Positions 61,001-64,000 of a stretch of 64,000 bases of DNA are shown here, piece by piece. The position numbers are program-made. This DNA is from Escherichia coli (GTDB taxonomy: Bacteria > Pseudomonadota > Gammaproteobacteria > Enterobacterales > Enterobacteriaceae). The stretch lies in NCBI RefSeq assembly GCF_009931435.1, contig NZ_CP043415.1; one strand, written 5' to 3'. The first letter of the stretch is position 1; each line of letters opens with the position of its first letter.

Positions 61001-64000
61001 GTAACACCCTCAGCTTCACACATCTCCTGCAATTGCGCTTTTAACGCAGCAGGAATAAACACTCTGAGTTCTTTATGTGTGGCTCGTTTTCTTGCCAGGG
61101 ATGCCTGCTGACGTTCTGCAAGCGTCAGAGGATTACCTTTTCTGTATGCTCGCTTTGTACCTGATGAGGAAGTCACTGCATTTTCTGTCTGCGACATCTC
61201 GCCTCCTCAATTCTCAAACAGGGATCGTTTCGCAGAGGATACTACAGTTTTTTGAAATCAGCGACTTGAAAGTTGTGACGATGATCTGTGTTGGCGCACA
61301 AATCATGTCTGATTACGACCGTTTAATGTGATTTTGATAATGAAATGACTGAAAAGATGGAAATGCCTTAACCTGTGTGCCGGCCCCGGGCGGGACCGGC
61401 TGTTTCTGGCATGTCGGGTGTCTGCCCCTGAAATACCTCACACTTCCGGAAAGCGGGGACTTCCCTCCCCGCCCGGCAGCTTACTTCCGTGCTTCGTAGG
61501 CCAGAGTTACCTGCACCACTGTATTTCCCCTGTGAATATTCAGCTCACATAACCGTTCCCTGAATATCAGTGAAAAACACAACACCGTGGCGCACACGGC
61601 GAGCAACCCGATAAGGGCATATTTCGTCATAAACTTTGACCTCTCTGCAAGGAAGAGGCTACAATCAGTAGTGTTAAGGTACTTCATGCAGGCCTCACGA
61701 GTTAATGGATTAACAAGTGGGGTCTTCGCATTTCTGGTACCTGCGTCTTGCCTGAACCAGAAAGGCTCAGACACCCGCCGCGATAATACCACATTCCCTG
61801 TTACTGACCATTCCCTCCATTTCCCGCTTTTCACTACAGAAAAGCCGGGGGCGGGGAAAACTTGCTTTTTCCCGTCCCCGGGGTTGGACAACTGAGCAAC
61901 GCGAAGGCGTCAGTGGATTTTTATGATCCTTCCAAACTCTGCTTCCATTTTTTTCATATCCTGTTCTCTTACTGCGACTATCAGTTGTTTTCCTGATTTT
62001 CGTGCCACTCTGGCAAACTGCATGACGGCAGATTCATTATTCAAATCAGACCATCCTGTACAATTAAAAATAATAATATGCTCACTGGCGTTCAGCGCAT
62101 TCCTGATAAAAATAACAGCATAATCATTTAATGTTCTGTCAGAACAACTGTAAATCTGGCTGAAATCATAATACTTATAATCAGTGATATTCAGTTTATT
62201 TAAAAAGCTATCAACTTCAGAAGCTGATTCCCCCACTATAAGAACATTATGATTAGACGATGTGATTAATTCTGATACTGCCTGATAGTTCATTTGTTCA
62301 CCTTTCATTAACAGAGAAATAAGTTAATAATGTAATATGCTTCATGCTTTTAAATATCGCATTTCAATGAGAACTCAATAGCCACAGAAATATCATTATT
62401 TCCGTGAGCGCCATACCCAGGGCGGAACAGGAGCGCTGTCTGCCCACAGACCACGTTTCTGCTGTCGTACTTCTCCCTGCAGGACAGGAAGAACAGGATC
62501 GGTGTTGTACTGCTCATAAACCCATGCATCGCCTGCACGGACCATAAACTGATTAACATTCATTCCGTCTGGTGCATAAACCTGCCCGAGAATACGACCA
62601 TAATGATCTCGCTGAAAATATGTGACAGTAACCGTTTTTCCCGCAACCAGAGATTTCATTATTTTTTCAGACCACCGTCCATATTCCTGTTTCTTTTCAG
62701 GTGCATCAATATTAACAAGACGGACACGCACCGGATGCTGAGATAACATGACGTCAATGGTATCGCCATCCAGAACACGCACGACCCGTCCATGAATATC
62801 AGCAGAAAATACCTGACATGAAAAAACAAATAATACCACTGGTATATATTTCTTCATTTTACTCTCCGTCACTGATTACTTTTCGTGATTGCATGAATTC
62901 CATGCCGGGATGAATAATGGCTCACGTATCACGCAAAAAATAAACCGTTGAGTTGTGATCAATTCAACAAAATAAGATGAGGTGACTTAATACACATATG
63001 GCTATGTGTTACTAAAAACGCTGGTCAGCCAGCCTGACCAGACACATAAGAAACAACGTCTCATGCATTATTCAGCCTCCTGATACCTGGAGTAACGGAG
63101 GCTGCTTTTTCTGTCACATATTTCCCGTGAAGGCGTTACCGGTTTCCGTGGGTAACATGTGACGGAGATTATATTTTTAATCTCCGTGTATTCATCATAC
63201 CTGCTCTTGCTGACAGGATAACTGTGTTATATCGCAGGCTACCGGATGTGGCGCTGAATATAACGGTCATAGATAAGTCATACATGCCCTGCTCAGGGGA
63301 TTAGCGATAAGACGGACCGGGAGAGTCATCTCCCGGTTTTTCTTTATCCTGCCGCGAATACAGCCCGGCTGTCTGTCAGATTCACCGGATAACCCTACTG
63401 TTATGCATGCCACTGTCACCTCCTGCTTCTTGAAATTCATCACATTTTTTATCCCTGCTGGCTTACCCGGGATGTGAAATATGTTAATTCTGTGATGTCC
63501 GTTTGAAAGACAGGGCAACTCCTTCTTACACCACTATAATAATAATAACGATCTGCCATATAAGTCTGATCCCCCGGAGCTCCGCGACGGGGGTTATTTT
63601 TATCGGCACTTACACCGACATGCAGATGCCCTCTTCAGAGCAAAATCCCGCCATGCTTCACAGGGTGCCAGCCGGGCCGCATTCTGCCAGACCTCTGCCG
63701 CTTCCCTGAAAAAGCCACGAATCTCCTGACGGACGGCATGACGCCCCTCGCGCTGATAGCGATAAATACTGCTGTGTTCAGATAATCCACTGGATACAGC
63801 CATTTTTTATCCCTCCTCTTGACCCGACACCCGGATTATGTCAGAAACATTATGAAACATCCCTGAACGGTTGGATGTTTTTCTCCATCAAAACTCTGGA
63901 TGTCTGTTTTCCCGATTTTTTTCGCTGTTGCCCTCTGTCATACAGAGGGCGCTTTTCTTATTCTGCCAGGATCGCCCGCAGCTCATCCTTGATCCGGTTC

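Follow-up and report, generated by a model that had tools for sequence, protein, structure and literature searches.

Small P-loop proteins named YfdA or simply 'ATP-binding protein' are encoded on conjugative plasmids next to the genes for DNA transfer and are uncharacterised; examples are WP_001220543.1 of IncI2 plasmids that carry mcr-1 and WP_001460389.1, encoded between traU and trbC of some IncF plasmids. Here, we compare with them the product of an open reading frame (ORF) at positions 61910..62308, on the minus strand, of a 64,000-nucleotide (nt) stretch of Escherichia coli DNA (NCBI RefSeq assembly GCF_009931435.1, contig NZ_CP043415.1), referred to as the window throughout. The window protein belongs to the same family and resembles the YfdA group in its size class, its predicted α/β core, the motifs KY[YF]DF and ARKxGKxLIV, the region around F125 and its occurrence on conjugative plasmids next to transfer genes. 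It differs from this group in lacking the Walker A and Walker B motifs, the sensor-like threonine and the last β-strand. [quoted passage not shown] We consider it probable, at roughly 0.6, that the intact gene encodes a non-catalytic, dispensable and conjugation-associated pseudo-ATPase, an IncF-specific dead branch of a plasmid P-loop family.

Three groups of better known proteins can be compared with this family. The nearest named profile is the Pfam domain nSTAND3 (PF20720), which forms the nucleoside triphosphatase (NTPase) module in STAND conflict proteins, for instance in Avs5 (bioRxiv 10.1101/2025.07.08.663546). It is matched by 14 of 26 relatives at E<=0.001, and two IncI2 members exceed its gathering score of 27.2 bits when scored individually, whereas the window protein has no match. 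The helical arm, sensor repeats and effector domain that are hallmarks of STAND proteins are present in no family member. The nearest folds are the AAA+ and RecA-like cores. Minimal ATPases of the RecA superfamily, such as KaiC domains, FlaH, PH0284 and the helicase cores of T7 gp4 and DnaB, show identities of 9-19%; the family proteins are about half the size of RecA-type domains, no oligomerisation or DNA-binding elements are evident in them, and the window protein, unlike the RecA-type enzymes, has no nucleotide-binding residues. Compared with the AAA+ core of NSF-D2, Cdc48/p97 or RFC, the window protein lacks the lid and sensor 2, ends after strand 5 and has degenerate Walker motifs, and no arginine-finger region was recognised. 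As lid, arm, sensor and effector domains are missing from the members, none of them is a complete AAA+ or STAND protein. The window protein is a lidless, motif-dead variant of the P-loop fold and no new kind of system.

Literature searches for yfdA, yihA/yigB, the IncI2 ATP-binding protein and pseudo-ATPases found no study of the window gene or of any family member. According to a 2025 study (PMC11915502), an H-NS homologue silences a gene for a 'putative ATP-binding protein' near topB of IncX3 plasmids, which may encode a family member.

Sequence and fold of the window protein

The maximal ORF starts with ATG and comprises 132 codons plus a stop codon, in agreement with the 132-amino-acid (aa) protein described in the earlier note, and is a genuine protein-coding gene, beyond chance: a stop-free run of this length was reached in 2 of 2000 dinucleotide-preserving shuffles. 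With a GC content of 34.6%, compared with 46.1% for the whole window, and 200-nt windows down to 30.5%, the gene is indeed AT-rich. The true start is likely the second ATG (M6, 62293) rather than the first. It is preceded by a Shine-Dalgarno-like AAGGTG (62299..62304, minus strand) with a 5-nt spacer to the ATG, it is the start of the RefSeq protein WP_001109067.1, and the homologues begin here. Thus, the product is probably 127 aa long (61910..62293, minus strand).

Direct scans of the window protein against Pfam, NCBIfam, PADLOC and PHROGs gave nothing above noise; PADLOC returned only a sub-threshold oMTase match and no known anti-phage defence system, and its matches to relatives were confined to the P-loop motif. 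For these direct scans the earlier statement that the protein has no placeable motif is upheld.

The protein had also been regarded as an orphan, which is contradicted by a tblastn search against 72,556 plasmids. Relatives were found in 1253 plasmid records, 93% of which are typed as conjugative, and they also occur on plasmids of Klebsiella, Salmonella and Shigella. The matches fall into three groups: near-identical copies of the window gene; proteins of 143-157 aa with about 50-55% identity, which occupy the same finO-copB slot on other IncF plasmids of E. coli and Citrobacter; and proteins encoded by IncI2 plasmids and by a Providencia plasmid, which share about 25-33% identity. The IncI2 protein of 178 aa is 33% identical to the window protein (BLASTP E=2e-13), and the Providencia protein matches with the same E=2e-13. 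Full-length homologues with conserved motifs extend down to 24% identity.

The profile searches and the structure prediction proposed in the earlier note led to a small P-loop family and to an ASCE core, respectively. The profile search covered 5.8 billion proteins. In addition, 1.84 billion cluster representatives were scanned exhaustively with HMMER, which delimited the family to 55 clusters with E<=0.001, or 38 with E<=1e-10. The window protein is recovered by the family profile at E=1e-55 to 1e-48. By sequence similarity, the window protein is therefore a member of a very small, plasmid-restricted YfdA-like family with Walker A and B motifs. Assignment to a well-characterised housekeeping family, which would have refuted the earlier note, did not result: the core is of a generic P-loop type, and the family is itself uncharacterised. 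Its members are 140-180 aa long, the majority about 140 aa, and consist of the core only.

In the alignment of 41 family members, nine of which are of the IncF-slot type, 27 carry a canonical Walker A motif, GxxGxGK[ST], that follows the first strand, and a Walker B motif of the form hhhhD is present in most. A threonine at the end of the 'RLIVVT' strand, reminiscent of sensor 1, is found in many ATP-binding members. In the window protein, the position of Walker A is occupied by G26-ESASEVD-S34 (GESASEVDS; 62207..62233, minus strand), which lies between strand 1 and helix 1 of the predicted structure; relative to the canonical members, the lysine is replaced by Val32 and the serine or threonine by Asp33. 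The Walker B strand, I78-I-I-F-N82-C83 (62060..62077, minus strand; strand 78-82 of the model), reads IIIFN, with Asn82 at the position of the aspartate. The same changes characterise the entire IncF type: all nine proteins have G/W/E-xSASxxD at the Walker A position and IIFN at the Walker B position, and in all nine the third motif strand reads LIVAV, with AV in place of the threonine-bearing VT. The loss of the Walker A lysine and serine/threonine and of the Walker B aspartate would abolish canonical ATP binding and hydrolysis.

The non-catalytic motifs KY[YF]DF, E76, ARKxGKxLIV and F125 are retained in the window protein and throughout the IncF clade. K45-Y-Y-D-F49 (62162..62176, minus strand) lies on strand 2; K45, Y46, D48 and F49 are invariant in alignment A1, and Y46 and F49 are invariant or nearly so in the wider alignment A2. 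A102-RKSGKQLIV-111 (61976..62005, minus strand) is the most conserved motif of the family. In a neighbour-joining tree, which carries no support values, the IncF-slot proteins form one clade, and at least three further, independent lineages with degenerate motifs have kept full-length ORFs.

The AlphaFold model of the window protein has a predicted local distance difference test score (pLDDT) of 84.5 and shows a bare ASCE P-loop core, whose three α/β layers superimpose on known ASCE ATPases. It ends with strand 127-130 and residue 132 and has no C-terminal helical lid. A canonical member has an additional C-terminal strand (136-141) that pairs with strand 5. The window protein lacks this last strand because its ORF stops seven residues past F125, at a TGA contributed by a repeated element (see below). 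A sequence-profile search of the PDB returned only matches to the P-loop motif, e.g. the 'AAA ATPase' 8bns and the N-terminus of the Pif1-like helicase 5fhd, and assigned the window protein to no subfamily.

These features suggest a pseudo-NTPase that has kept the fold and lost the chemistry. The window protein is a stand-alone, lidless ASCE-type P-loop domain in which all nucleotide-binding and catalytic residues are replaced. Any action it has would then consist of protein binding through the retained surfaces that include KYYDF and ARKxGKxLIV, and the likeliest target would be a component of the transfer apparatus or its ATPases. Such a role would be accessory and dispensable.

Several observations on relatives concern their names and coding regions. 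Distant members appear in the source databases as 'ATP-binding protein', 'YfdA protein', 'nSTAND3 domain-containing NTPase' or 'sigma 54-interacting transcriptional regulator'. RefSeq applies the last of these names, together with a Gene Ontology term for transcription regulation, to the IncI2 homologue (locus L003, 5938-6474; hundreds of IncI2 records). Its match to PF00158 scores 22 bits and covers only about 45 residues around Walker A, and the protein has neither a DNA-binding domain nor a full sigma-54 activator domain. As the match is limited to the surroundings of Walker A, the name is an artefact and probably wrong. The same protein precedes pilN and was considered as PilM; this was rejected because it has no PF07419 match, and on a related plasmid a distinct PilM with PF07419 occurs alongside a family member. 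The annotated N-termini of IncI2 members (L003 5938-6000, L005 4980-5030, P0040 and P0042) contain a stretch of NMNMNM in variable copy number, encoded by a hexanucleotide repeat of the AATATG type. This stretch lies upstream of the start of other members and may be a non-coding 5' leader with a slippage-prone repeat.

Selection and decay in the IncF branch

The window-type gene is present in 195 of 5426 complete E. coli genomes (about 3.6%), and 200 of its 201 places are on plasmids. The sole chromosomal copy, in strain N39 (NZ_CM165893.1, 3656379-3656776), is a 398-nt frameshift allele and presumably part of an integrated plasmid segment. Among 55 full-length matches from complete E. coli genomes, 27 are 399 nt long, 13 are 398 nt and 15 are 400 nt; five further copies are truncated. 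Thus, about 55% of the sampled copies are disrupted by a ±1 frameshift or by truncation. The shorter allele arises from a 1-bp deletion at the T of codon S30 (62219, minus strand), which frameshifts many otherwise near-identical plasmid copies; of 127 plasmid records, only 35 reach >=99% identity across the 71 nt that surround this site. The second widespread allele has a T inserted in the T-run of codons 66-67 (62108..62112, minus strand), as seen in locus L013. At both sites the window copy is intact, and it is among the intact copies overall. The widespread frameshifts and truncations make it clear that the gene is dispensable and that many IncF lineages are losing it.

Such decay raises the question of whether the gene is simply a relic, i.e. 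a former YfdA-like ATPase gene that lost its function with its motifs and has since been drifting, the window copy being one that has so far not been hit. We regard this as unlikely overall, although it is the strongest competitor of the pseudo-ATPase reading. It would account for the loss of Walker A, Walker B and the sensor-like threonine, for the missing C-terminal strand with the ORF running into the TGA of the repeat, for the two frameshift alleles and for copies that have lost their 5' or 3' end (L014, L026). Moreover, the gene sits in a mosaic slot that holds unrelated genes in other plasmids. On the other hand, the ratio of non-synonymous to synonymous substitution rates (dN/dS, Nei-Gojobori method, NG86) between IncF-type lineages that diverged after the motifs were lost is 0.29-0.51, compared with 0.12-0.14 among ATP-binding lineages, values that are rough because dS is near saturation in most pairs. 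This indicates purifying but relaxed selection on the protein in the IncF-slot lineages. The complete retention of the non-catalytic motifs in the IncF clade and the persistence of this monophyletic clade in the same slot, in plasmids of E. coli and Citrobacter, likewise speak against mere drift. Finally, motif loss has recurred in the other lineages mentioned above with full-length ORFs, which suggests that a nucleotide-independent function is viable.

Transfer genes and the finO-copB slot

Family members are consistently found in the company of conjugation genes: in 11 of 11 examined contexts, the gene lies beside transfer genes and is co-oriented with them. On IncI2 plasmids, the member stands between virD4 and pilN in the order virB11-virD4-X-pilN-pilO (X denotes the family member), and elsewhere the order is virB10-X-parE...pilM-pilN. 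IncX-like plasmids show the gene for the type IV coupling protein (T4CP) followed by Cag12-TrbM-...-X-PcfJ-topB-hns, and the IncX-like contig L028 shows T4CP-TrbM-...-SNase-PcfJ-X-topB-SprT-Hha. In further contexts, the member lies within NusG-like-X-virB1-virB3-virB4, within virB1-virB2-X-virB3/virB4 (two metagenomic plasmids), next to a relaxase gene (the Providencia plasmid) or in a DtrJ/S49/NERD transfer-region neighbourhood (a 226-kb contig). Some IncF plasmids carry traU-YfdA-hyp-trbC (hyp, a hypothetical gene) within the tra operon itself, and this YfdA has intact motifs (GEEGTGKST, TLILD). The window type occupies the finO-copB slot. No neighbouring gene is conserved across all contexts.

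The insert between traU and trbC (L021 9001-9944, L022 7001-7944) encodes the YfdA of 153 aa and a 150-aa protein without a family match; at the same position R100 has a different ORF of 101 aa and the plasmid that matches the window has none. In three plasmids, an anecdotal sample, either YfdA or the degenerate copy was present in each.

A wider interpretation is that the family as a whole constitutes an unrecognised accessory of conjugative T4SS and type IVb pilus machines, a minimal RecA/KaiC-like switch whose dead forms act as nucleotide-independent modulators. We hold this to be a rather speculative extension. Its members might dock on the hexameric VirB4/TraC, VirB11, VirD4/TraD or PilQ, as archaeal FlaH does on FlaI, and the dead forms could then be constitutive or dominant-negative regulators of transfer. 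They might even serve as a fertility-inhibition factor against co-resident plasmids that carry an active paralogue.

Several points weigh against the narrower reading of the window protein as a conjugation-associated pseudo-ATPase. The association with conjugation is guilt by association, and the slot that the IncF gene itself occupies is a cargo mosaic beyond the tra operon proper, which in R100 contains hha and a DUF2726 gene instead. The loss of nucleotide binding is read from sequence, and non-canonical binding may be possible. Fold comparison of the predicted model does not separate an AAA+-like from a RecA-like core. The coarse dN/dS values weaken the case for selection, and the high frequency of frameshifts together with the C-terminal truncation fits a relic equally well.

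The locus is flanked by the distal end of the tra operon on one side and by a RepFII-type (RepFII/FIC) replicon on the other. The best-matching record, NZ_CP075700.1 (an IncFIA/FIB/FIC conjugative plasmid), is 100% identical over a 1.5-kb region and shows, on one strand, the order traI-traX-hydrolase-finO-small ORF-nuc-ORF-hok-copB-tap-repA. The window gene is therefore beside transfer genes and co-oriented with them, yet outside the T4SS operon proper, unlike most of its relatives. Its placement between srnB and a nuclease gene, as previously noted, is correct. Downstream lies a type I toxin module of the Hok/SrnB type (61481..61776, minus strand), with the Hok coding sequence at 61481..61630 (Hok/Gef, PF01848) and sok at 61620..61776 (minus strand, Rfam match); CopA RNA, copB and repA follow beyond it. 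Upstream lies nuc, an SNase/thermonuclease gene of 158 codons (62396..62872, minus strand; PF00565, E=6e-27). Among these neighbours PADLOC reported the SNase domain of the window nuclease, one sub-threshold E1-E2 match and otherwise nothing.

The proximity of nuc could point to a partnership of the two genes, the small protein regulating or inhibiting the SNase, or the PIN nuclease of other plasmids, or conferring immunity to it; we consider this improbable. The ORF follows nuc on the same strand after 87 nt, and a simple scan predicted neither a promoter nor a terminator in between, so that co-transcription is plausible. The window SNase is 50% identical to an SNase encoded two genes upstream of the family member in L028; the pairing thus recurs on two unrelated backbones. 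In addition, other IncF-type copies lie downstream of a PIN7-domain gene. However, these neighbours are not conserved: the copy in locus L017 has no nuclease nearby, the copy in L014 lies directly beside finO with the SNase gene absent, and most family members, including most of the ATP-binding relatives, are found in virB, tra or pil surroundings without a nuclease. PADLOC matched the pair to no known system. Moreover, the N-terminus of the window SNase resembles a signal peptide (MKKYIPVVLFVFSCQVFSA, read from the sequence), as in a secreted-type SNase, whereas the window protein has no such N-terminus, and the two products would therefore reside in different compartments.

The earlier note had placed the gene in the leading or maintenance region and had hinted at an anti-restriction or stress-modulating function. 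A small, AT-rich and uncharacterised plasmid gene would fit the profile of an early-entry gene that acts in anti-restriction, anti-defence or stress modulation, and the IncX3 gene reported as silenced by an H-NS homologue, which may be a relative, could be cited in favour; but the setting is a different one. The ORF lies past finO and next to copB-repA, outside the leading region; in NZ_CP075700.1 the leading-region genes ssb, psiB and an antirestriction gene are found past traM, about 40 kb from the ORF. In F-type transfer, finO-proximal DNA enters the recipient late. Given this polarity and the distance to the leading-region genes, the window locus is expected to enter late as well. Furthermore, Pfam, NCBIfam and PADLOC scans gave no homology of the window protein to anti-restriction, stress-modulating or defence families, and with PHROGs included, the scans showed no resemblance to ArdA, ArdB/KlcA, PsiB or Hha, nor to profiles of defence and anti-defence. 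An early-entry function is thus very improbable. A chance ORF, finally, for which the missing family match in direct scans, the atypical base composition and the absence of annotation in many records might be cited, is refuted by the shuffles, the full-length homologues, the confident fold and dN/dS values below 1, and the unannotated copies are the frameshifted ones.

The finO-copB slot (61481-63803 in the window; also L002, L015, L017, L019 and L024) is a mosaic hot spot for cargo genes that differ between plasmids, are often regulatory or directed at nucleic acids, and include SNase, PIN7-domain, NYN-domain, DUF2726 and Hha genes, a small regulator of the ANR family and the Hok/Sok module. 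R100 has an ANR-family regulator in the slot, together with nuc, hha and a DUF2726 gene, and no family member; one IncF plasmid has NYN-domain and DUF2726 genes, and other slots, including those with IncF-type copies, hold PIN7-domain genes and small ORFs. On the IncX-like contig L028, the gene for the coupling protein is followed by a comparable set (SNase, PcfJ, family member, TopB, SprT-like, Hha). The proposal that the window gene is 'yihA' of R100 was rejected because no family member is present in the R100 slot; the published plasmid label 'yihA' is the name of a chromosomal GTPase.

Some IncF plasmids carry two members in tandem, as in L013 (NZ_CP040454.1, 42194-43190) and about 100 other records with two places. 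The order is nuc, a frameshifted window-type copy, the repeat element, an L002-type copy (WP_000872609.1) and hok. P0010 looks recombinant, with a window-type N-terminus and an L002-type C-terminus.

The repeat element is about 75 nt long and terminator-like, and its copy in the window (61839..61913, minus strand) reads CTGACGCCTTCGCG...hairpin...CCGGCTTTTCT. Its first bases supply the TGA stop codon of the ORF, and the hairpin past the stop folds better than shuffled sequences (z=-3.3). The 5' boundary of the element, at CTGACGCCTTCGCGTTGCTCAGTTGTCCAACCCCGG, is sharp; a GC-rich hairpin and a T-run come after it. Further copies were found in L002 (4852-4951), L015 (7464-7538), L017 (4710-4781 and 7187-7261) and R100 (L019; 15296-15367 and 28011-28085). 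They sit after unrelated genes, namely the window ORF, an ORF of 188 aa, the DUF2726 gene of R100 and traT, and in the region downstream of finO, and in three cases the TGA of the repeat is the stop codon of the preceding ORF. Rfam gave no match for the element. Its appearance is that of a terminator which, within the finO-copB slot, also serves as a cassette junction or recombination joint. A plasmid that matches only window positions 61300..61963 was considered as a sign that the last ~18 codons had been borrowed from the hok module; this was rejected, because in that plasmid, a deletion derivative, the point in question is fused to trbJ, and the match hence provides no support for a borrowed 3' end. 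Just upstream of nuc, a match to the Rfam family AS-pc02 ('antisense to pHK01_099') was observed at 63034-63158 on the plus strand, with 47.6 bits compared with a gathering score of 40; it overlaps a terminator-like hairpin at 63021-63041 on the minus strand.

Meaning for the plasmid family

The analysis provides a structural and evolutionary identity for a gene that RefSeq calls "hypothetical protein" or leaves without annotation in many records, and it links this gene to relatives on IncI2 (mcr-1), IncX-like and IncF plasmids. In practical terms the window gene is of modest importance, since plasmids can dispense with it and many copies are broken. Greater interest attaches to the entire family, as it combines a minimal ATPase with the repeated conversion to pseudo-ATPases. 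A small and uncharacterised family of lidless ATPases that are embedded in conjugation operons is brought to light, and the misleading annotation of its IncI2 members as a "sigma-54-interacting transcriptional regulator" is corrected. If these proteins modulate transfer, they would represent a new accessory factor of clinically important resistance plasmids, and the way in which they have repeatedly become pseudo-ATPases would illustrate functional repurposing in compact form.

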